7,947 nt of DNA from a virus (Duplodnaviria; Heunggongvirae; Uroviricota; Caudoviricetes). The notes under the pieces are model-generated. The model searched no databases, was not told where the DNA came from, and saw only the letters and a program-made list of their open reading frames with translations. The position numbers were made by a program, and so were the translations under genes. Shown here one piece after another: positions 1 to 7,947 of the stretch. Numbering within the stretch: the stretch's first letter is position 1; every line of letters starts with the position of its first letter. The stretch lies in IMG/VR virus record IMGVR_UViG_2713896907_000004, positions 1 through 7,947 of that record. One strand, given 5' to 3'.

Positions 1-230
1 CACGGCCTGATATTGCTGTACGGTGGGTTATTCCAGATTGCACCGTGGCTTACCCACTCAGAATTGAGCGCGTCGTCGGCCTCAGTTAGCCAGTGAGCGC
101 ACAGAGCATTTTTGTCGCTCGCAGCTGAATCCAGCCAGAATCCAAACTCAATATCCAGCGCATCAAAAAGCCAGAGCGGCGTTTGCCAGCAGTCCTTGTC
201 GTGTGATGGCGTATTTGATTTGATAGTCAT
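1..230 (-). CDS. dam: Phage DNA N-6-adenine methyltransferase (Dam family), N-terminal part; gene runs off the window start
   Basis: Minus-strand ORF starting at ATG 230, overlapping the ninB TGA stop (ATGA junction). Hand translation: MTIKSNTPSHDKDCWQTPLWLFDALDIEFGFWLDSAASDKNALCAHWLTEADDALNSEWVSHGAIWNNPPYSNIRP, no stop before position 1. NPPY catalytic tetrapeptide and overall N-terminus resemble phage Dam methyltransferases (recalled, not searched). Confidence 0.7.
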   Translation of the reverse strand, partial: MTIKSNTPSHDKDCWQTPLWLFDALDIEFGFWLDSAASDKNALCAHWLTEADDALNSEWVSHGAIWNNPPYSNIRP

Positions 231-673
231 GCAGCCCTACCTTTTCGTTGTGACCATTCATACTCTCGCCAGGAGTCATCACTCCACCGCACGTTGCGCT
301 CTGAGCCGAACCAGAACATGATTTCGATAAGCTCAGTCATGCTGGCCTTCCGCATTTTGCTGGTACGCACGCCAAGCATGGCAACGCCACCGTCGATACC
401 AGGCACACTTCGTTGCTCCAGTTTTTTGGTCTTAAGCCACAGGGCAGTGAACAGGTCTTTCCAGTCTTCCGGCGCCAGCCGTTGACCATGCCATAGCACC
501 TGACGCGAAACATCGTTCAGCATCGGCCACATACGGTCATTCTGCGCTTTGCTGCGCTTGGGTTCTTTAACGTGGACTTCGTGGGGTGACTTGTCGTCGA
601 TGGGTAGTGAGAGAATGGCGTCTATGGCGTTATTTCTGATTGCTTCGTTGCGAAGCAGAAAGGTTTGCTTCAT
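227..673 (-). CDS. ninB: NinB-like recombination protein (lambda NinB/Orf family)
   Basis: Part of track ORF 227..775(-). Start placed at internal Met 35 (ATG at 673), preceded by GGAG. Product MKQTFLLRNEAI...WHGQRLAPEDWKDLFTALW...RNVRWSDDSWREYEWSQRKGRAA recalls lambda NinB in length and in the DVSRQV.WHG and WSD motifs. Confidence 0.85.
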   Translation of the reverse strand: MKQTFLLRNEAIRNNAIDAILSLPIDDKSPHEVHVKEPKRSKAQNDRMWPMLNDVSRQVLWHGQRLAPEDWKDLFTALWLKTKKLEQRSVPGIDGGVAMLGVRTSKMRKASMTELIEIMFWFGSERNVRWSDDSWREYEWSQRKGRAA

Positions 674-866
674 CTCCTGCTCTCCGGTTCCATTTTTCAG
701 CCGCCGCAGCAACTGATGGTGCCCATGCCCCCCTGGCTTCACAGAGGTCACATTCTGCATAGCCCCACACATCAATATTTATTCCGGCCTCACCCCACAG
801 ACGACCATTACCGCCGCAAAACGGACATTCTTTTAGCTTTGGCTGGGTTAATGATAGGTCGCTCAT
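630..866 (-). CDS. lar: Lar-family restriction alleviation protein (zinc-ribbon CPFCGG type)
   Basis: Internal start of track ORF 630..1073(-) at Met 70 (ATG at 866), preceded by AAGGAG at about 5 nt. Product MSDLSLTQPKLKECPFCGGNGRLW...ECDLCEARGAWAPSVAAAAEKWNRRAGDE has the CPFCGG ... C..C ... AxxxWNRR pattern of the Lar family. 3' end overlaps the ninB start by 44 nt in another frame. Confidence 0.7.
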   Translation of the reverse strand: MSDLSLTQPKLKECPFCGGNGRLWGEAGINIDVWGYAECDLCEARGAWAPSVAAAAEKWNRRAGDEANLSASQRSNQK

Positions 867-876
867 GCTCACTCCT

Positions 877-1092
877 TCACTTAAAATCCAGACTCCGGAT
901 AATTCTGTTGCGCTGAAACTCATTGTTGAGTTTGAACAACCGTCGAAGAACACGGTCACGCGGATAGCGTCGTGCGGCAGGTGAATGCTCATACAACTCA
1001 TCAAGCGGCAAACTTGACGATGAACGATACCGATACCAACGCACCAACTCTTCACGAAAATTAGCCCTGACAAGCTCAGCTATCGTACTCAT
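877..1092 (-). CDS. Hypothetical Arg-rich small protein (71 aa), first gene after the tR2-like terminator
   Basis: Track ORF 877..1092(-). GGAGGA about 8 nt upstream of the ATG at 1092. Its TGA stop lies inside the lar RBS. No recognisable family. Confidence 0.55.
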   Translation of the reverse strand: MSTIAELVRANFREELVRWYRYRSSSSLPLDELYEHSPAARRYPRDRVLRRLFKLNNEFQRNRIIRSLDFK

Positions 1093-1120
1093 TTCTTAAA
1101 TCCTCCAATTACTCTCCCCC

Positions 1121-1152
1121 AAATAAAAAGGCCTGCGATTACCAGCAGGCCT
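1121..1152 (-). terminator. Rho-independent terminator after the helicase gene (tR2-equivalent position)
   Basis: Minus-strand RNA reads AGGCCUGC-ugguaauc-GCAGGCCU followed by UUUUAUUU. Perfect 8-bp GC-rich stem (1129-1136 / 1145-1152) with the T-tract at 1121-1128. Sits about 28 nt downstream of the helicase stop. Confidence 0.65.
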
Positions 1153-1180
1153 GTTATTAGCTCAGTGATGTAGATGGTCA

Positions 1181-2617
1181 TCAGAATCCTCCTTTCTTCT
1201 TGGACTGCGGTTCCTCGCGTTCACGGCGGCGCATTTCAGCAGACTGTTGGTCTGTGTCATAAATAGCGCCATTTGCCTGTATGCAATACACCGTGCCGGT
1301 ATTGCCATGACGATTGAGGCGAAGGATTAGTTCGGTTTCACCAGGAGGAACGCTGTCATCAAAAGCACCTTCACGATGGATCCCCACCCAATAATCGCAA
1401 TCCTGTTCAATCTGCCCTGTATCTCGTGAGTCACTTGGTAATGGGCGTTTATTGGTTCGGCTTTCCAGTGCGCGGTTAAGCTGTGTCAGAAGCACAACAA
1501 CGCAATCAAGCTCTTTGGCAAGGTTCTTCAGTCCTTTGGTGATCATGCCGTAAGCAAGGTCGTTGCGATCGGCCTTTTCAGCGGTCATTAGTGTCAGGTA
1601 ATCGACCAGAATCATGCCAACACATCCTTTTTCTCGCTTGATTCGACGGCTTTCGCTGACGATTTGAGCCAGAGATAATCCCGGCGTGTCGTCGATGTAA
1701 AGCAGGTCGATTTCACTCAAGCGATTGGCTGTCTCGATCGCCCTGTTGAAGTCACCATCGTAATCACCCTGATAGCCGTCATCAGCGTCATTTGTCGCCG
1801 GAAGGTAAAAAATATTCGGGTTCACACCTGACTTCTGCCCTACCAGTTTTTCCAGTATCTGGTCACCTGGCATTTCAAGGCTGAACATCAGAGCGGGCTT
1901 TTTCTCATGCACTGCGCAGTTGATTGCCATCTGGCTGTATAGCGTCGTTTTCCCCATCTTAGGGCGAGCGCCAATGACAAACAGAGAGCCTTTCACCAGA
2001 CCTTTCGGTGACAGCATCCTGTCCAGCGATGGGATCCCTGTGCTCATTCCTCGTTGTTCGCCTGACGGGTCAAATCGCTTCTCAAGGTCGCTAACCCAGT
2101 CTTCCATGACCTCACCAAATGAGCGAAGGCCGCGACGCGATCCGGTTTTTGCATGGTCTGTCAGTTGCGTGAAAATCGACTGAATAGCTTCGTACTTCTG
2201 CGTTGCAGTCATTCCGTTGCGGGAATAGAGCAATTCCGTCGCTTCAGTCATGCGGTTGATGGCGTAGCGTTCCATTGCGGTTTCGCGAACCTGCATTGCA
2301 TAAGCAACGATGTTTGCTGCGCTTGGCGTGTTCTTTGCGATCTCAGCGATATAAGCAAAACCGCCAACAGACGCCGTTAACGATTTACGCTCCAGTTCAT
2401 CGAAAAGCGTCAGGCCATCTACTGGCTTTTGCTCACGGTGCATTCTGGTTATTTCTTCGAAAATGATTTTGTGTGGCCGGCTGTAAAATGAATCAGGCTT
2501 CAGCATCGCCAGAACCTTCTGGACGCGCTCACTGCTGTCATCATCCAGAAGCAATCCACCAATCACCGCCTGCTCTGCCTCGATGCTATGGGGCGGCGCA
2601 TAAAAATTATCGGTCAT
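1181..2617 (-). CDS. dnaB: DnaB-family replicative DNA helicase (phage-encoded, P22 gene 12-like)
   Basis: Track ORF 1181..2632(-). Start chosen at ATG 2617 ([25 protein letters not shown], preceded by GAGGGTG); the track Met at 2632 is the alternative. Classic DnaB N-terminus and Walker A GARPKMGKTT. Start overlaps the upstream gene's stop (ATGACCGATAA). Confidence 0.9.
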   Translation of the reverse strand: MTDNFYAPPHSIEAEQAVIGGLLLDDDSSERVQKVLAMLKPDSFYSRPHKIIFEEITRMHREQKPVDGLTLFDELERKSLTASVGGFAYIAEIAKNTPSAANIVAYAMQVRETAMERYAINRMTEATELLYSRNGMTATQKYEAIQSIFTQLTDHAKTGSRRGLRSFGEVMEDWVSDLEKRFDPSGEQRGMSTGIPSLDRMLSPKGLVKGSLFVIGARPKMGKTTLYSQMAINCAVHEKKPALMFSLEMPGDQILEKLVGQKSGVNPNIFYLPATNDADDGYQGDYDGDFNRAIETANRLSEIDLLYIDDTPGLSLAQIVSESRRIKREKGCVGMILVDYLTLMTAEKADRNDLAYGMITKGLKNLAKELDCVVVLLTQLNRALESRTNKRPLPSDSRDTGQIEQDCDYWVGIHREGAFDDSVPPGETELILRLNRHGNTGTVYCIQANGAIYDTDQQSAEMRRREREEPQSKKKGGF

Positions 2618-3506
2618 CGTGTTCACCCTCACGAACTTTCAGGTAGGTATTGTCGTTAAGCAGGAAATCAAATCCCTTTTTGTGCCAGACGGTTCCGCGC
2701 TGATGGTTTGGGCGCTCTTCGAACATCCATCGGCAATTTTCGCCTACGTAGCTCAAATAATTTCTCCAGTCCTGCATCGTGAACCCATGCCCGTCAAGCT
2801 GGCGGGTTATCACTCCGGCTTTGCGCCAGAACGTTCGGATCTGGTTTTTACGCTTGTCATTCAGTGCGCGGATTCTTGGCGCTTCAGGAAGGATTTCGTG
2901 GTAAGCATCGACAACATCCTGACAGCTGACGGGAGGTTTTTTCTTGTCAGACTTTTTGTCTGCTGTGGCACTCTCTAATACGTCAGTATTAGAGATAATA
3001 TTATTATATTCTTTATCTGTGGTAATTTGCTGGTAATCTGCTGGTACAGTATTGCTTACAGGCATTGGTATTGCTGGCTTTGAGGTGGTAATTTGCTGGT
3101 AATCTGCTGGTACAAAATTTGACTGATAATCGTCATATTTCTCTACCGAGAAAACTGAGAATTTACCGTGTGAAACCCAGTCAATCATGCCGAGTTTTTT
3201 GAACTTTCTAAGCAGGTACTGAACGCGATCTGGTTTGAGTCCTGTTTCAAACGCCAGAGAGTTTCTACCGCCAAGTAGCTTCCCTCTGCCTACCAGAATT
3301 TCTCCTGCGTCAGTCATTACATACTCAGGCGTATGCTTTGCTTTGAGGATTAAGTGAACCCACAGATGCGCTGCTTCTGCGTCCTTGTAAAACGGCACAT
3401 CCATAATTTTACGGTGCAGCAAGGCATACCCCTTACCGCTGCTTTGATGCGGTTGTTGTAGCCTTCTGGCCTCTCTGGCTTCGGCTAGATTAGATATGTT
3501 ACTCAT
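2607..3506 (-). CDS. Replication initiation protein (lambda O / P22 gp18 analogue)
   Basis: Track ORF 2607..3506(-). AAGGAG 7 nt upstream of the ATG at 3506. N-terminal winged-helix-like region, a central linker carrying the duplicated peptide [10 protein letters not shown], and a C-terminus resembling the conserved phage replication-protein C-terminal domain. Sits immediately upstream of the helicase. Confidence 0.8.
2972..3113. other. Putative origin of replication inside the initiator gene: AT-rich palindrome plus iteron-like direct repeats
   Basis: Two identical 29-bp direct repeats (3019-3047 and 3085-3113, gtggtaatttgctggtaatctgctggtac), each with GCTGGTAAT sub-repeats at about 11-bp spacing. 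Adjacent AT-rich stretch 2972-3016 holds a perfect 10-bp inverted repeat, tctctaatac-gtca-gtattagaga (2972-2995). Layout matches lambda ori inside O. Confidence 0.5.
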
Positions 3507-3645
3507 GACCTTTCTCCTTCTGCATCAGCTTCACTTTTTCCAACTCAGCCCGGAATCGACAAGGCTGCTTGAAGCTGGACAGGAAGCGATCACGTAGTAT
3601 GTGTTTGTGAATTTTGTCCTGGTAAGGACTGAGTTGTTTTGTCAT
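3499..3645 (-). CDS. Small hypothetical protein (48 aa) between cII and the initiator gene
   Basis: Not in the supplied track (too short). Hand translation from ATG 3645: [53 protein letters not shown] 7 nt upstream. Stop overlaps the initiator start (ATGAGTAA). Confidence 0.4.
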
Positions 3646-3654
3646 AATGACTCC

Positions 3655-3731
3655 TGTGGATTGATCCAGTAATTACCTCAGAACTCCATCTGGATTTGTT
3701 CAGAACGCTCGGTTGCCGCCGGGCGTTTTTT
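3655..3731 (+). ncRNA. oop: oop-like antisense RNA candidate (about 77 nt, antisense to the cII 3' end)
   Basis: Plus-strand extended -10 TGtCATAAT at 3640-3648 in the cII/initiator intergenic region, with a strong intrinsic terminator about 77 nt downstream inside the cII 3' end. Geometry as for lambda OOP. Start site is inferred, not observed. Confidence 0.4.
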
Positions 3732-3974
3732 ATTGGTTAGTCCATCAAGCGCATACTTAAAAGCCCTGCTAATCGGACTGATGTCTGATGCCATTCCAAA
3801 AGCACACAGAACCGAAGCAATAAATCTCCAGTCCGTTCTGCTTATCTTCGATTCATGACAGCCAATCATCTTTGCCAGACCGCGCTGGGTAAGCGTTGAC
3901 AGGTTGATAAGTAAATCTGTTTCTGCGCGATCAACGTCGCGCTGTGATAGTTTGCTGTAACTTGTTTGTTCCAT
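3678..3974 (-). CDS. cII: CII transcriptional activator (lambda CII family)
   Basis: Track ORF 3678..3974(-), 98 aa. C-terminal LTNKKRPAATERSEQIQMEF matches the lambda CII C-terminus as recalled. HTH-like ESKISRTDWRF in the middle. Sits between cro and the replication genes. Confidence 0.9.
   Translation of the reverse strand: MEQTSYSKLSQRDVDRAETDLLINLSTLTQRGLAKMIGCHESKISRTDWRFIASVLCAFGMASDISPISRAFKYALDGLTNKKRPAATERSEQIQMEF
3704..3731 (+). terminator. Rho-independent terminator on the strand antisense to cII
   Basis: Stem cgctcgg (3706-3712) / ccgggcg (3719-3725) with one G-U pair, 6-nt loop, extendable by two A-T pairs, followed by TTTTTTATT. Confidence 0.6.
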
Positions 3975-3984
3975 TTCTTACTAT
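3952..3984 (+). promoter_or_regulatory. PRE-like CII-dependent promoter candidate (TTGC-N6-TTGT at the cII start)
   Basis: Plus strand TTGC (3952-3955) - tgtaac - TTGT (3962-3965) overlapping the cII start region, with TACTAT at 3979-3984. Resembles lambda PRE TTGC-N6-TTGC and would point through cro antisense toward cI. Confidence 0.3.
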
Positions 3985-4008
3985 TTCCATAGTTAAATAA
4001 TCACTAAT

Positions 4009-4026
4009 ACTCATCTTTCGATGAGT
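4009..4026 (-). terminator. tR1-position hairpin between nutR and cII
   Basis: Minus-strand RNA ACUCAUC-GAAA-GAUGAGU, a perfect 7-bp stem with GAAA tetraloop, followed by an AU-rich tail AUUAGUGAUUAUUU. Weak intrinsic terminator or processing site. Confidence 0.35.
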
Positions 4027-4038
4027 GCTTAATTAGTT

Positions 4039-4073
4039 ACCGCGTTGTCGGCGGTGCAGATTGATAAAGAGCG
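4039..4073 (-). promoter_or_regulatory. nutR: boxA plus P22-type boxB
   Basis: Minus strand just downstream of the cro stop: boxA-like CGCTCTTTA (plus 4065-4073), then boxB hairpin ACCGCCGACAACGCGGU (plus 4039-4055). Matches the P22 nutR boxB as recalled. Confidence 0.6.
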
Positions 4074-4080
4074 ATGTTAC

Positions 4081-4308
4081 TTATGCAGCCAGAAGGTTCT
4101 TTTTGCTTATTTCAAGCATTTCGCTTGCTTGATATTTGCCACCAGAAATCTCTTCGATTTTTGATGCATATTTCGTTTTCCCAAAAAACTCAGTCTTAGG
4201 GAGGAAGCCGTTTTTAAGCCACTTATAGACAGCCCTTTCGCTAACTCCACAAGCCTTCGCAACTTCAGGGATGCCGACACCTTTAATCGGCTCATCAAGA
4301 TTTTGCAT
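4081..4308 (-). CDS. cro: Cro-like HTH regulator (first gene of the PR operon)
   Basis: Track ORF 4081..4341(-). Start chosen at internal ATG 4308 (MQNLDEPIKGVGIPEVAKACGVSERAVYKWLKNGFLP...), which has AAAAAGGG 8 nt upstream. The track ATG at 4341 falls inside the predicted PR -10. HTH motif present; divergent from cI. Confidence 0.7.
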   Translation of the reverse strand: MQNLDEPIKGVGIPEVAKACGVSERAVYKWLKNGFLPKTEFFGKTKYASKIEEISGGKYQASEMLEISKKNLLAA

Positions 4309-4320
4309 AGGAATACCCTT

Positions 4321-4393
4321 TTTCGTACTTTCAGTACGCATTATGATTGAACTGAAAGTTTTTGCAAGTGCTTTAGTATCGTACTCATGGTTC
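4321..4393. promoter_or_regulatory. OR-like operator/promoter region (PR leftward, PRM rightward)
   Basis: Minus-strand PR: -35 TTGCAA (plus 4362-4367), 16-bp spacer, -10 CATAAT (plus 4340-4345). Operator-like sites: cgtACTttcAGTacg palindrome (4324-4338), gaACTgaaAGTt (4349-4360), weaker taTCGTACtc (4377-4386). Possible PRM -10 TAGTAT (4374-4379) ends 7 nt before the cI ATG, which lacks a Shine-Dalgarno. Confidence 0.5.
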
Positions 4394-5094
4394 AGAATGA
4401 AAAAGTGCGCAAAGAATTCGCCCAGCGGCTAGCGCAAGCCTGTAAAGAAGCTGGTCTTGATGAACATGGTAGGGGGATGGCCATAGCCCGTGCCCTTTCT
4501 CTTTCGTCCAAAGGCGTTAGCAAATGGTTTAATGCTGAGTCTTTACCGCGTCAGGAAAAAATGAATGCGCTTGCGAAATTTCTAAACGTTGATGTTGTTT
4601 GGCTTCAGCACGGCACTTCGTTAAATGGAGCGAATGATGAAGATACTCTTTCATTTGTTGGCAAATTAAAAAAAGGGTTAGTGCGCGTGGTTGGTGAGGC
4701 AATTCTTGGTGTTGATGGTGCCATCGAGATGACCGAAGAGCGCGATGGGTGGCTCAAGATTTATAGCGATGATCCAGATGCCTTTGGTCTTCGTGTGAAA
4801 GGAGACAGCATGTGGCCCAGAATAAAATCAGGAGAATATGTACTCATTGAGCCTAACACCAAAGTATTCCCGGGTGATGAGGTGTTTGTCAGAACCGTTG
4901 AAGGACACAACATGATTAAGGTTCTTGGCTATGACAGAGATGGAGAATACCAATTTACAAGCATTAACCAGGACCACAGGCCTATAACGTTGCCTTATCA
5001 TCAAGTAGCAAAGGTGGAGTATGTGGCTGGTATTCTGAAGCAATCTCGTCATCTGGATGACATCGAGGCAAGGGAGTGGCTGAAAAATTCGTGA
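4387..5094 (+). CDS. cI: CI-like prophage repressor (N-terminal HTH, C-terminal S24 LexA-like peptidase)
   Basis: Track ORF 4387..5094(+), 235 aa. HTH near the N-terminus (GMAIARALSLSSKGVSKWFN). C-terminal GDSMWP serine motif and downstream Lys (NMIKVLG) typical of the S24 autocleavage domain. Divergent from cro with the operator region between. Confidence 0.9.
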   Translation: MVQNEKVRKEFAQRLAQACKEAGLDEHGRGMAIARALSLSSKGVSKWFNAESLPRQEKMNALAKFLNVDVVWLQHGTSLNGANDEDTLSFVGKLKKGLVRVVGEAILGVDGAIEMTEERDGWLKIYSDDPDAFGLRVKGDSMWPRIKSGEYVLIEPNTKVFPGDEVFVRTVEGHNMIKVLGYDRDGEYQFTSINQDHRPITLPYHQVAKVEYVAGILKQSRHLDDIEAREWLKNS

Positions 5095-5170
5095 CTTCAT
5101 CGTCACATAGCTGGTAACCAGTGGCCTGAAGAGACGTTTGGGTGATAGGAATGGATGTTAAGGATTAAGA

Positions 5171-6217
5171 ATGTCAGCGATTGATCAACCTGCGCAATAT
5201 GTTATCAAGTCAGAAGACGACTTTGTATCTTTTGTAACAGAAATGCTCGGAAGGAAGGATATCGACTCAAGCGACTTCACATTCCCTAGCGTAGTTTTCA
5301 GTGGATGGCCAAAGATCAATATTAATGTAAAAGGCGATCCAAATAGATATAATTCTTCATTGACTGCGTCAATGCTTTTTGGTATGGCAGAGCTTACGCA
5401 TGAAATACAAAAAGCATTTACGGTAGTCAGTCACAGCACTCATAATCGGCAGAAGCTAAAAGATGCAGAGAAAGGTTTGCTGGATATTGTCTACCGAATA
5501 AGCGAAGGCTCAAGCCAAGCGGATGGTGACTCAGATCCGATTGTAAACGGAGTGGTGACAGTGTTAACTCAAGCGATAGGCAAAATGACAGGAAGGCAAG
5601 CACTATGCGCCGTCGCCGCTATCGTCTTAGCTGCCAGCACGGTAGGCTATAAGTGGATCAATGAGTACTACGAAACACAGCGACATGACCAAGATTCTCA
5701 GGTGCAATTGGTGGAAAAAAGCACCAAAGCGGTAAACGAAGCACAAGACAATGTGCTCAAGTTGTTGATTAGCGGTCAAACAAACATTAGCAGAGAGGTT
5801 CTGGCTCACGGCGAGGATGGTAAAAGCAAGTTGCTTAAAAAGCTTGCTCAAGACTCGTCAGTTGAGAAGGTAACAATTGGTCAGAGAGTGGTAAATAGAG
5901 AACAGTTGAATACCTTAAACCAAAGGCAATCAATTGATCGAAAAAAGGAAACCAGAAGAGATAACTTTTATGTCACGGGCGTTCGTCGCTCGGGAGAAAC
6001 AAATCAGGACATAAATATTGACGTCACAAGGGTTTCAAATGGTGAATCTTTCACCATAAAAACCTCAGCCGACATAACATCTACTGATGAGCTTCTTGAG
6101 TTTTTGAATGCTGTAGCCAAAGAATCAACTGTTGAAATTTCATACCTAGAGGTTGTAGAAAATGGACACATTTCAACAGGACAATTGATAAATATATTCC
6201 CCAGCGAACCAGAGTGA
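5171..6217 (+). CDS. Hypothetical membrane protein (348 aa) in the rexAB-equivalent slot; candidate exclusion/defence moron
   Basis: Track ORF 5171..6217(+). AAGGA 6 nt upstream of the ATG. Same strand as cI, 76 bp downstream, with no terminator between. Visibly AT-richer than neighbours. One central hydrophobic segment (ALCAVAAIVLAASTVGY) and a charged Q/K/E-rich C-terminal half. No family recognised. Terminator follows. Confidence 0.8.
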   Translation: MSAIDQPAQYVIKSEDDFVSFVTEMLGRKDIDSSDFTFPSVVFSGWPKININVKGDPNRYNSSLTASMLFGMAELTHEIQKAFTVVSHSTHNRQKLKDAEKGLLDIVYRISEGSSQADGDSDPIVNGVVTVLTQAIGKMTGRQALCAVAAIVLAASTVGYKWINEYYETQRHDQDSQVQLVEKSTKAVNEAQDNVLKLLISGQTNISREVLAHGEDGKSKLLKKLAQDSSVEKVTIGQRVVNREQLNTLNQRQSIDRKKETRRDNFYVTGVRRSGETNQDINIDVTRVSNGESFTIKTSADITSTDELLEFLNAVAKESTVEISYLEVVENGHISTGQLINIFPSEPE

Positions 6218-6225
6218 TGCACTCC

Positions 6226-6254
6226 AAACCCGGCCTCAGCGCCGGGTTTTCTTT
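6226..6254 (+). terminator. Rho-independent terminator after the 348-aa gene
   Basis: Stem aaacccggc (6226-6234) / gccgggttt (6241-6249) with loop ctcagc, followed by TTTTCTTT (6247-6254). Begins 9 nt after the TGA stop. Confidence 0.7.
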
Positions 6255-6354
6255 GCCTCACGTTCGCCCTCCCATATTTAATAGCCGCAAATGTGGTAAA
6301 CCGCGAACCAACTCACCAGCAATACCCCCTCCAACTACAGACCAATCTGCAGCA

Positions 6355-6382
6355 TTTACAAAAATAAATTTCCTTATATATC
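6355..6382 (+). promoter_or_regulatory. Near-consensus sigma70-like promoter candidate in the AT-rich spacer upstream of OL
   Basis: -35 TTTACA (6355-6360), 16-bp spacer, -10 TATATA (6377-6382), plus strand, pointing toward nutL and N. Confidence 0.35.
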
Positions 6383-6418
6383 AAAATTATATCTCGCTGC
6401 ATTAATAAATCACAAAAA

Positions 6419-6464
6419 TTTCGTACCAATAGTTCTTGATAATATCGAACTATTGGTTCATTAT
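6419..6464 (+). promoter_or_regulatory. OL/PL-like region: operator motifs co-linear with OR plus a PL candidate
   Basis: TTTCGTACcaatAGTtC (6419-6435) and GAACTattgGTT (6447-6458) match the OR motifs TTTCGTACtttcAGTaC and GAACTgaaaGTT in the same order with near-identical spacing. 11-bp perfect inverted repeat accaatagttc / gaactattggt (6425-6435 / 6447-6457). PL candidate: -35 TTGATA (6436-6441), 17-bp spacer, -10 CATTAT (6459-6464). Confidence 0.45.
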
Positions 6465-6510
6465 TGTCACATCAGCAGGACGCTGGAAGCCAAACGGAAC
6501 AGATTGGCAG

Positions 6511-6544
6511 GCTCTTTAACTTCGATGGGGCGCTGACAAAGCGC
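6511..6544 (+). promoter_or_regulatory. nutL: boxA plus P22-type boxB
   Basis: boxA-like GCTCTTTAAC (6511-6520), then boxB hairpin GCGCTGACAAAGCGC (6530-6544), which is the P22 nutL boxB as recalled. Upstream of the N-like gene. Confidence 0.7.
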
Positions 6545-6572
6545 AAACAGATACCAAACGAGATGGGTTTGG

Positions 6573-6655
6573 CGGTGTGTAGCTCAGCAGGTAGAGCGGA
6601 TTCGTTGGCTAAGCCGTGGAATCGCGTCACCAGTTCAAGTATGGTCACACCACCA
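6573..6655 (+). other. tRNA-like element, non-canonical (degenerate tRNA remnant or structured N-leader RNA)
   Basis: Strong D-arm signature TA-GCTC-AGCAGGTA-GAGC. T-arm-like ACCAG-TTCAAGT-ATGGT with a G53/A61 mismatch. Acceptor cggtgtg/cacacca pairs 6 of 7. The anticodon stem gattc/gaatc encloses a 15-nt loop rather than 7. CCA follows at 6653-6655. Confidence 0.3.
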
Positions 6656-6681
6656 AAGCCATTTCACATGGAGAAAAGAAA

Positions 6682-6801
6682 ATGCTGGAAATTATCACCA
6701 ACCCAATTCTCGGTGGGGCAATCATCACTTTCGCAATCGGCATCGGATTCACTATCTGGTCTGAAGTAGATGACTGGATGTGGGAGCGCAAAAACAAATA
6801 A
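6682..6801 (+). CDS. Small hydrophobic peptide (39 aa, single predicted TM helix) in the N leader
   Basis: ATG at 6682 with GGAG 8 nt upstream. Product MLEIITNPILGGAIITFAIGIGFTIWSEVDDWMWERKNK: hydrophobic core then a charged Trp-rich tail. Inside the longer track ORF 6616..6801. Lies between nutL and N. Confidence 0.4.
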   Translation: MLEIITNPILGGAIITFAIGIGFTIWSEVDDWMWERKNK

Positions 6802-6841
6802 TAATCGACACACATTCATGTGTGTCTTCACGGAGGTCATC

Positions 6842-7150
6842 ATGACGGTTATCGTATACGGAAAATCAACATTTGCAGGAAATGCCAAAACTCGCCGTCA
6901 TGAGCGGCGCAGAAAGCTGGCTATCGAGCGTGATTCCATCTGCAACATCATCGATTCGATCTTCGGCACAGACAGTGAGGAAGCTGTTCAGGAAGAACCG
7001 AGAAAGCGTTTAAGCCTTTCTGAAAAAGCAATATCACTCGGCATCATTAGTAAATCAAATACAGATGCGAATGGCGGAAGCGTTTGCCTGCCCGAAGTTG
7101 CACTGTATGCTGCTGGTTACAGGTCAATGAAATCAATTACGGCGAGATAG
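6842..7150 (+). CDS. N: N-like transcription antiterminator (P22 gene 24 type, arginine-rich motif)
   Basis: Internal start of track ORF 6770..7150 at Met 25 (ATG 6842), with GGAGG 5 nt upstream. N-terminus MTVIVYGKSTFAGNAKTRRHERRRKLAIERD carries the arginine-rich boxB-binding motif of P22 N as recalled. Cognate boxB present in both nutL and nutR. Confidence 0.85.
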   Translation: MTVIVYGKSTFAGNAKTRRHERRRKLAIERDSICNIIDSIFGTDSEEAVQEEPRKRLSLSEKAISLGIISKSNTDANGGSVCLPEVALYAAGYRSMKSITAR

Positions 7151-7152
7151 AA

Positions 7153-7419
7153 ATGACTAGCAAACAAGTATCATATAAATGCTATTGCCCTTTATGTGGA
7201 AGAAAATTCAGCGCCAAGGCAGCATGGAAGCATATCAATGATTATCATCCAAAAGCATCAGAACGTGAGTTGATGATGATAAGAGATGTAAAACGAGAAA
7301 AAATTTCTTTCGCAACAAAGCCACTAAACGCCAACAAAAACGCAATATTGTATCAAATGCATCGTTCAAGTGGTCCAGATTATTCTGGAGGGCTTCCATC
7401 TCTTGGAAAGAAAAAATAA
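7153..7419 (+). CDS. Hypothetical small protein with a Cys2-His-type zinc-binding motif (89 aa)
   Basis: Internal start of track ORF 7084..7419 at Met 24 (ATG 7153), immediately after the N stop. Weak RBS (GAGATAGAA). Motif CYCPLCGRKF...HINDYH. No family recognised. Confidence 0.5.
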   Translation: MTSKQVSYKCYCPLCGRKFSAKAAWKHINDYHPKASERELMMIRDVKREKISFATKPLNANKNAILYQMHRSSGPDYSGGLPSLGKKK

Positions 7420-7552
7420 CCACGCTCATGCTGGTTTTTAATGACATAAATAACCCTATTTACTACCGCAAGCCACGCAGTGAAATGGGTGTGACTTGTG
7501 TTGGTCGCCAGAAAATGAAATTAGGCAGCAAACCACTTATTTGAGGTGATAT

Positions 7553-7639
7553 ATGGAAGAAGAATTTGAAGAGTTCGAAGAGCATCCGCAGGATGTGATG
7601 GAACAATACCAGGACTATCCGTATGACTACGACTATTGA
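7553..7639 (+). CDS. Very small acidic peptide (28 aa), possibly coupled to the next ORF
   Basis: ATG 7553 with GAGGTGA 4 nt upstream. Hand translation MEEEFEEFEEHPQDVMEQYQDYPYDYDY. Overlaps the start of the next ORF by 17 nt. Could be coding or only a coupling leader. Confidence 0.3.
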   Translation: MEEEFEEFEEHPQDVMEQYQDYPYDYDY

Positions 7640-7823
7640 TAAAAATCAATGGTGTGGACAATTCAAACGATGCAATGGATGCAAGCTGCAATCGGAATGC
7701 ATGGTTAAGCCTGAAGAAATGTTTCCTGTAATGGAAGATGGGAAATATGTCGATAAATGGGCAATACGAACTACGGCAATGATTGCCAGAGAACTTGGTA
7801 AACAGAAAAACAAGGCTGCCTGA
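7623..7823 (+). CDS. Hypothetical Cys-rich small protein (66 aa, CxxxxxCxxCxxxxxC)
   Basis: Track ORF 7623..7823(+). Start overlaps the preceding acidic ORF. Four Cys in CGQFKRCNGCKLQSEC suggest a zinc ribbon. Followed by a terminator. Confidence 0.5.
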   Translation: MTTTIDKNQWCGQFKRCNGCKLQSECMVKPEEMFPVMEDGKYVDKWAIRTTAMIARELGKQKNKAA

Positions 7824-7842
7824 TGGTGGCCTTTATTTTTGG
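7813..7842 (+). terminator. Rho-independent terminator after the N-downstream small genes
   Basis: Stem aggctgcc (7813-7820) / ggtggcct (7825-7832) with two G-U pairs, loop tgat (contains the TGA stop), followed by TTATTTTTGG. Confidence 0.5.
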
Positions 7843-7947
7843 CATAAACAACAGAATAAACACAGCACTGTGTATTCATTCCAACGAGTGAATACACGGA
7901 GCAATGTCGCTCGTAACCAAACAGGAGCCGACTTGTTCTGATTATTG

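Follow-up and report, generated by a model that had tools for sequence, protein, structure and literature searches.

ral, the overlapping micro-ORF orf28 and a gene for a predicted zinc-finger protein behind the antiterminator gene N of a lambdoid prophage

The window analyzed here is a 7,947-nucleotide stretch of DNA from a tailed virus (Duplodnaviria; Heunggongvirae; Uroviricota; Caudoviricetes; positions 1 to 7,947 of IMG/VR record IMGVR_UViG_2713896907_000004) that contains a lambdoid immunity and early region, and our subject is the interval from 7153 to 7842, which holds three small open reading frames (ORFs) behind the antiterminator gene N. This interval is likely to be where the accessory part of an Escherichia coli lambdoid prophage's early-left (pL) operon begins. 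It comprises three real genes and a mosaic scar: ORF1, encoding a small zinc-finger protein that may serve early transcription; ORF2, the acidic micro-ORF orf28 of phage lambda, which may act together with Ral; and ORF3, the restriction-alleviation gene ral. An initial annotation, made from the sequence alone, had placed the three ORFs, the motifs quoted from them and a terminal terminator-like hairpin in the variable accessory region after N, and all of these were found as described, except that ORF1, given as 89 amino acids (aa), encodes 88 aa, the larger figure having counted the stop codon. Its statement that none of the three was recognizable did not hold, because ORF3 is ral, a gene class which that annotation had itself named, and ORF2 encodes a peptide identical to that of lambda orf28 (lambdap47; PMC10695390); as a novelty, one third of the finding is thus refuted by a match to a known protein. 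All three ORFs proved to be conserved coding genes, as judged by the nonsynonymous and synonymous divergence of ORF1, the synonymous excess in ORF2 and the full-length Ral match of ORF3. What was known already is ral, and orf28 as an annotated ORF; what is added here is that orf28 accompanies ral in every lineage read and that selection acts on its peptide. As a whole, the region is an ordinary mosaic accessory segment of ordinary-to-moderate interest, with one known gene, one neglected micro-ORF and one uncharacterized accessory gene.

The identification of ORF3 as ral is virtually certain. The Ral hidden Markov model (HMM) scored 159.8 bits against a cut-off of 25, with residues 1–66 lying on profile positions 1–66, and positions 7528–7947 of the window were 97% identical to phage lambda DNA. 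In the window ral lies downstream of N in the pL operon, and the same order is found in lambda, P22, Sf6 and other phages. Compared with lambda Ral, ORF3 has the same length, position and terminator and differs at a few residues, with nothing functional visible in the sequence. The four cysteines of the cluster C11-x5-C17-x2-C20-x5-C26 were invariant in 30 homologues with 52–97% identity; since this invariance extends down to 52% identity, a metal site is plausible. The cluster had been described as resembling a zinc ribbon, but its spacing is Cx5Cx2Cx5C and not CxxC...CxxC, and AlphaFold2 gave a predicted local distance difference test score (pLDDT) of 53–56 over residues 1–20, with no hairpins there, a β-hairpin at 36–43 and a helix at 45–65. 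No solved structure in the PDB matched Ral by sequence or, in a search with the model, by fold. Ral has been known since 1980, and we know of no established biochemical mechanism for it. By analogy with the lambda protein, the basic ORF3 product (isoelectric point [pI] 9.0) would act in restriction alleviation. Lambda Ral accelerates first-strand methylation by type IA enzymes, acting via HsdM's N-terminal domain (PMC12707154), and ral is conditionally essential, namely when the type I system of the host is active (PMC10695390). A scan of a genome collection for Ral returned mostly lambda DNA in unrelated assemblies: assemblies of Nocardioides, Paenibacillus, Bradyrhizobium, Vibrio and other genera had near-identical lambda ral on contigs that were short and of low coverage (Table 1), which almost certainly reflects lambda control DNA contaminating these assemblies.

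ORF2 matched lambda orf28 at 28 of 28 residues and was also identical to the P22 and Sf6 copies. The lambda GenBank record carries a 28-codon coding sequence at 34271–34357 that overlaps ral; the peptide, its Shine-Dalgarno sequence and the 17-nt overlap with ral are the same in lambda and the window, without any sequence difference. The lambda homology of the window sets in upstream of orf28, about 25 nt from its start, and relative to P22 the DNA identity was 96.6% in orf28 and 75.5% in ral. The peptide is rich in Tyr and contains 12 acidic residues (D or E) and no basic residue among its 28, for a computed pI of 4.05 and a net charge of about −12. The strong ribosome-binding site attributed to it was borne out by the sequence GAGGTGAT, and the Shine-Dalgarno sequence was kept as GAGGTGA or GAGATGA in lambda, P22, Sf6 and L005-7. 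An orf28 homologue preceded and overlapped ral in all 13 of the Ral loci that were read, from lambda to Proteus and Erwinia; in the distant loci (Providencia, Kluyvera, Erwinia, Proteus and two metagenomic ones) it is an acidic ORF of 22–28 codons that ends 11–17 nt inside ral. The consensus reads M-E-E-x-x-E-E-F-D/E-E-H-P-x-D-D-M-S-Q-Y-Q-D-Y-P-Y. Pfam, NCBIfam and PADLOC gave no usable family for orf28, whose only profile match was its own PHROG, and no paper assigning it a function was found in the literature searched. In lambda, orf28 (lambdap47) is listed as a "hypothetical protein" and was nonessential in a CRISPR interference screen (PMC10695390).

It is highly likely that orf28 encodes a real peptide under selection. 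The part outside the ral overlap contains about 9 synonymous and 60 nonsynonymous sites, and close relatives differed there by 7 synonymous and 3 nonsynonymous changes, where 13% synonymous changes would be expected (binomial, 5e-5). Synonymous (pS) and nonsynonymous (pN) divergence were 0.33 and 0 between the window and P22, and 0.55 and 0.15 between the window and Providencia. Because the substitutions are mostly synonymous, selection appears to act on the peptide itself and not just on the act of translation, and the pattern suggests that orf28 is translated. Some observations weigh against this view. The substitution counts are small, and the last third of the peptide (QDYPYDYDY) overlaps the Shine-Dalgarno sequence and start codon of ral, so that its conservation is confounded with that of the ral initiation region. 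In addition, synonymous divergence from P22 was lower in orf28 (0.33) than in ral (0.63), which could be due to recent recombination or to a constraint on the RNA, and knock-down of orf28 in lambda gave no plaque phenotype, in a host without type I restriction (PMC10695390). In one Kluyvera locus (L049, 1437–1700), the ral homologue is apparently frameshifted, with 50 codons followed by another frame, and the orf28 homologue upstream starts with GTG and has only 23 codons left; the copy is possibly in decay.

The relation of orf28 to ral admits several readings. We tentatively favor the one in which orf28 works with Ral as a co-translated partner, and this may be correct. In every lineage read, the AGGA and ATG of ral lie inside orf28, and this overlap geometry, which the initial annotation had taken as a sign of translational coupling, was conserved throughout. 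Ribosomes terminating on orf28 would be delivered onto the ral start, and the acidic peptide would work with the basic Ral as a partner or regulator, making restriction alleviation a two-gene module. The proposal draws on charge complementarity (about −12 against a pI of 9.0) and on the overlap of the two genes, an arrangement typical of subunits that are produced in a fixed ratio. A somewhat doubtful alternative is that orf28 is a leader ORF only, whose translation opens or loads the ral start and whose peptide has no function. The conserved overlap, with the ral start signals inside orf28 in every lineage, would suit such a leader, and the minimum-energy fold of the lambda-type sequence does pair the orf28 start region with the ral start region. 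However, amino-acid conservation, with changes that are mostly synonymous or E/D exchanges, spans codons 1–17, well upstream of the ral initiation region, and the start-to-start pairing was not conserved, being in most lineages no better than in shuffled controls; RNAalifold gave no consensus structure (−2.6 kcal/mol). An RNA structure coupling orf28 to ral was rejected on these grounds as the cause of the conservation. The idea put forward in the initial annotation of a DNA-mimic-like effector, taken here as a peptide that by itself blocks the DNA-binding groove of type I enzymes, has in its favor the extreme acidity (no K or R) and the genetic linkage to an anti-restriction gene, properties that orf28 has in common with Ocr and ArdA. 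Those mimics are several-fold longer than 28 residues, and orf28 differs from them further in having no homology found to them and no predicted fold; with no profile match beyond its own PHROG, and with the known action of Ral being to enhance modification rather than to block DNA binding (PMC12707154), this reading is very unlikely. If orf28 is instead a required partner of Ral, work with ral alone, past and future, would be incomplete, and structure prediction and reconstitution with EcoKI should be easy to apply to the two together.

ORF1 (MTSKQVSYKCYCPLCGRKF...HINDYH) is very probably a real zinc-finger protein, with a predicted zinc site. It is strongly basic (18 K+R against 6 D+E; pI 9.9) and consists of one C2H2-type finger (C12, C15, H27, H32), a helix at residues 37–50 and a disordered tail ending in GGLPSLGKKK. 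AlphaFold2 predicted a ββα finger with strands at 9–11 and 18–20 and a helix at 24–31 (pLDDT 87–89 over residues 11–40), and the profile of the ORF1 family matched classical C2H2 fingers in the PDB, both designed and natural, among them the designed protein Aart (2.1e-6, summed over six fingers); the earlier description of ORF1 as zinc-finger-like is therefore upheld. Like classical fingers, ORF1 has Cys-x2-Cys, a Phe three residues on, a hydrophobic residue before the first His and His-x4-His; unlike them, it has the second Cys separated from the first His by 11 residues instead of 12 (ligand and hydrophobic pattern C12, C15, F19, W25, H27, H32; spacing Cx2Cx11Hx4H). Across 13 family members F19, H27 and H32 were invariant and C12 and C15 nearly so. 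An exhaustive HMMER search returned about a dozen small relatives of 60–90 aa, along with large multi-finger proteins that match ORF1 in the finger alone. The family consensus runs CPxCGxxF...HIxxYH, AS[DE]xELxxIRDARR and a variable basic linker, with GG[LI]PSLGKK[RK] at the end of some members; the AS[DE]xELxxIRDARR helix and the C-terminal GGLPSLGKK[RK] set the family apart from classical C2H2 proteins. ORF1 matched phrog_20899, of unknown function, from end to end (2e-64). Its zinc-finger matches in Pfam all fell below the gathering thresholds (zf-Di19, the best, 19.6 against 27.5; zf-C2H2, 14.1 against 25.2), NCBIfam and PADLOC gave no usable family (best PADLOC match, 0.038), and no description of the family was found in the literature. 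The nearest examples, as we take it, are proteins in which a single finger is flanked by basic sequence, such as GAGA factor and the prokaryotic Ros/MucR. TraR and lambda Orf73 are described as small zinc-finger phage proteins that bind RNA polymerase (PMC9239242); ORF1 resembles them as a small phage-encoded protein with a predicted zinc site, a likeness that may serve as a lead. The TraR/DksA family was not among the Pfam matches of ORF1.

Comparison with a homologue of 68% DNA identity (P0006) gave a pS of 0.88–0.91 and a pN of 0.21 for ORF1, with 22, 19 and 55 differences at the three codon positions, while both shifted frames were full of stops. With pN far below pS and differences concentrated at third positions, the sequence comparison indicates that ORF1 is under strong purifying selection. 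It is barely credible, then, that ORF1 and ORF2 are chance open frames in a noncoding spacer: both are short, and ORF2, shorter than what common gene callers accept, usually goes unannotated, but the codon-position pattern of ORF1 and its low pN, together with the synonymous excess of ORF2 and the retention of its frame across seven genera, argue for coding.

The family is rare. A DNA query spanning ORF1 was covered to at least 80% in 14 of 5426 complete E. coli genomes; one phage, phiKp_30, carries ORF1, and 5.8 billion proteins yielded 7 clusters. Genomic contexts of the family were read protein by protein. In the window, as in L004–L010, ORF1 begins 2 nt after the N stop codon, a spacing kept although the N alleles are unalignable as DNA and 34% identical as protein over 68 BLASTP-aligned residues; in three further cases (P0010, P0011 and P0013) the finger gene starts 18–34 nt past an N-family gene. 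In all, the ORF1 relative lies directly downstream of N in five N-bearing lineages. Prophages of Proteus, Pantoea and Arsenophonus have no N ORF, and in these three lineages the finger gene is the first gene after cI, behind a leader with a conserved element of about 85 nt that resembles HK022 putL/putR and has GAACGGC...GTAT...GTCGGG...AAAACCCA in common with them. Proteus and Arsenophonus have a further copy on the opposite strand, downstream of cro and thus at the putR position. The element is probably a put-type processive antitermination RNA. RNAalifold of 3, 4 and 7 put-like leaders recovered only stem I, with two covarying pairs, which is suggestive and not proof; Rfam had no match for the Proteus leader, nor for the window leader with the three ORFs, and blastn of the Proteus leader against phages found none. 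As read from these sequences, the ORF1 family always stands directly behind an antitermination determinant, either N or a put-like RNA, and in the put-like phages it occupies the slot of nun. The terminal motif GG[LI]PSLGKK[RK] was present in 5 of 5 lineages with N and in 0 of 3 with a put-like leader.

Klebsiella phage phiKp_30 (L002, 1374–2106) carries N and ORF1 at 98.6% identity to the window, with a deletion (window positions 7402–7808) that removes the last ORF1 codons, the N relic described below, orf28 and ral, giving ORF1 a different C-terminus. A family member also occurs in a prophage with RexA/RexB (L016, 1778–3091 and 3652–4255), whose N-like gene gave a weak Pfam match (E 4e-4, below threshold); there, the finger gene is followed about 130 nt downstream by a second Cro-like gene, encoded on the opposite strand. 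In the database variants P0003, P0004 and P0007, ORF1 is frameshifted, one of them being without both Cys ligands and one reading into the frame of the N relic, which reflects either sequencing errors or occasional gene decay.

A hairpin with a U-tract directly follows the ORF1 stop codon and is a candidate for the first terminator of the pL operon, comparable to tL1. If it is, then ORF1, starting 2 nt past the N stop codon, would be produced along with N, ahead of antitermination, and would count as immediate-early, and we consider this timing rather likely. In the divergent ORF1 lineage represented by L004 and L005, the homologous position carries a canonical terminator (CCCGCTTCGGCGGG followed by T6) of −13.3 kcal/mol. 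Counting against such a role, the window hairpin is weak (−6.7 kcal/mol, z −2.2) and was not called by a scan for consensus terminators, which missed it because its stem is bulged.

As to what ORF1 does, we rank first, with due reserve, a transcription-linked nucleic-acid-binding role, in which it would be an accessory factor acting on or alongside the early transcription and antitermination machinery. What points in this direction is that the single finger is basic, that the position of the gene is strict, that ORF1 is coupled to N and that the tail co-varies. Several findings weigh against it. None of the relatives has a known function, and Foldseek searches of the model against the PDB and BFVD returned nothing significant, as expected for a finger of only about 30 residues. 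Rarity and patchiness are typical of dispensable accessory or anti-defence genes rather than of regulators; the phiKp_30 copy is without the C-terminal motif; frameshifted variants exist; and the link between tail motif and N is weak evidence, because it comes from only two clades and is not phylogenetically independent.

Essentially level with this proposal, and possible to the same degree, is the reading of ORF1 as an early, dispensable anti-defence or host-takeover effector without any role in transcription, whose finger and C-terminal linear motif bind and neutralize a protein of the host (a defence system, a nuclease or a protease, for example). The gene occupies the hypervariable place that in lambdoid phages accommodates ral, sieB and the like, its distribution is rare and patchy, it moves among phages with different immunity regions and N alleles, and its disordered tail with a short conserved end motif is typical of a protein-docking peptide; an effector of this kind would also be expressed as early as possible. 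Yet no anti-defence or defence profile matched in PADLOC, Pfam or NCBIfam, the strongly basic composition suits nucleic-acid binding, and the position is strictly tied to the antitermination determinant instead of being scattered in the accessory region. That ORF1 corresponds in function to HK022 Nun or to N, acting on RNA polymerase elongation complexes either to keep out competing phages or to aid or substitute for antitermination, is quite unlikely. Such a function would agree with the Proteus, Pantoea and Arsenophonus loci, in which the ORF1 relative comes first after the HK022-put-like leader, as nun does downstream of putL, and with the co-variation of the tail motif with the presence of N. 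The evidence for it is positional only, however: ORF1 resembles these proteins in gene position (first after a put-like leader or after N) and has neither an arginine-rich motif nor sequence similarity to them, the finger occupies its N-terminus, and where N is present, N already supplies antitermination. Membership of ORF1 in the N/Nun family (PF25694) was itself rejected, given the missing arginine-rich motif and the lack of an HMM match. The ORF1 family would bring a small zinc-finger protein into the limited set of lambdoid genes that are expressed ahead of antitermination. We regard as unlikely the combined, stronger proposition that (a) orf28 is an obligate partner or regulator of Ral in a two-component restriction alleviation and (b) the ORF1 family is an unrecognized class of immediate-early zinc-finger factors behind N or put-like RNA that modulate elongating RNA polymerase or nascent RNA, with the C-terminal GGLPSLGKK(R/K) as a docking peptide in N-dependent phages only. 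Current understanding is unchanged unless the orf28–Ral partnership or the role of ORF1 in transcription is borne out experimentally.

Between ORF1 and orf28 lies the scar, an N relic that derives from the 3′ end of a phage-21-type gene. A 38-codon ORF listed mechanically at 7428–7544 was rejected as a gene, since both profile and DNA matches identify it as the tail of N: it matched the last 30 positions (141–170 of 176) of the N profile phrog_271 (7.2e-12), and from 7452 on the window shares 97.6% identity with phage 21 and DE3, in which the annotation gives this DNA as the end of N. The relic reads ...GVTCVGRQKMKLGSKPLI*, and the C-terminus of lambda N, for comparison, ...GRQKIKGKSIPLI. In phage 21 and in the Providencia, Kluyvera and Erwinia loci, orf28 starts at most about 12 nt from the N stop codon. 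This direct succession, together with the relic, suggests that a cassette of a P22-type N, ORF1 and the hairpin replaced the bulk of the resident N gene and so would have produced the layout of the window. The divergent ORF1 lineage (L004, L005) has a matching layout, with a lambda-type N tail (...KMRGKSIPLI*). At the other end of the interval, an intrinsic-terminator-like hairpin of 9 pairs with a 4-nt loop and a TATTTTT tail (−13.9 kcal/mol) extends over the ral stop codon and is kept in lambda, Sf6, SF11 and L010.

Table 1. Features of the window and of the compared loci
Feature	Sequence	Position	Strand	Remarks
NinB, Lar-family gene, DnaB-type helicase, replication protein, cII, Cro-like gene	Window		−	
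Lar-family restriction-alleviation gene	Window	630–866	−	nin region; PF14354, 40.6 bits against a cut-off of 28.6
cI-type repressor	Window	4387–5094	+	
348-codon ORF	Window	5171–6217	+	between the cI-type repressor and pL, position of lambda rexAB
pL-like promoter	Window	6436–6464	+	
P22-type nutL	Window	boxA ~6513–6521; boxB 6530–6544	+	boxB GCGCTGACAAAGCGC; upstream of N
39-codon ORF, hydrophobic, membrane-type	Window	6682–6801	+	MLEIITNPILGGAIITFAIGIGFTIWSEVDDWMWERKNK; between nutL and N; phrog_7482, 1e-22
Antiterminator gene N	Window	6842–7150	+	PF25694 N_peptide, 6.5e-37; phrog_271
ORF1	Window	7153–7419	+	88 codons and stop; begins 2 nt past the N stop
Hairpin and U-tract (candidate terminator)	Window	7418–7442	+	directly 3′ of the ORF1 stop; RNA fold
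N relic (3′ end, phage-21 type)	Window	7452–7544	+	mosaic scar
Shine-Dalgarno sequence of orf28	Window	7543–7550	+	strong; read from sequence
ORF2, lambda orf28 (lambdap47)	Window	7553–7639	+	28 aa, MEEEFEEFEEHPQDVMEQYQDYPYDYDY; phrog_16060, 7.1e-19
ORF3, ral	Window	7623–7823	+	66 aa; PF11058, 1.2e-47; phrog_1055, 3.2e-49
Intrinsic-terminator-like hairpin and T-run	Window	7812–7843 (hairpin 7812–7833)	+	over the ral stop codon; scan and RNA fold
put-like element	Proteus L019	3860–3950	+	downstream of pL
put-like element	Proteus L019	2503–2588	−	downstream of cro
put-like element	Arsenophonus L025	3871–3952	+	downstream of pL
put-like element	Arsenophonus L025	2860–2940	−	downstream of cro
put-like element	Pantoea L022	3867–3944	+	downstream of pL
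Near-identical lambda ral	L027–L042, L045, L047, L048, L050			contigs from the genome-collection scan for Ral

The remainder of the window fits this setting (Table 1). The complete genomes closest to it were E. coli prophages, and since each covers at most 77% of it, the window is a typical mosaic. The N gene upstream of ORF1 encodes a P22-type arginine-rich motif (GNAKTRRHERRRKLAIER), and the PHROG matched by the small hydrophobic ORF that precedes N is of unknown function. The 348-codon ORF between the repressor gene and pL gave no significant match in Pfam, NCBIfam or PADLOC and is a candidate for a prophage-expressed exclusion or defence gene. Because a Lar-family gene is present besides ral, this one phage carries two different restriction-alleviation genes, ral on the pL side and the lar-like gene on the pR side.

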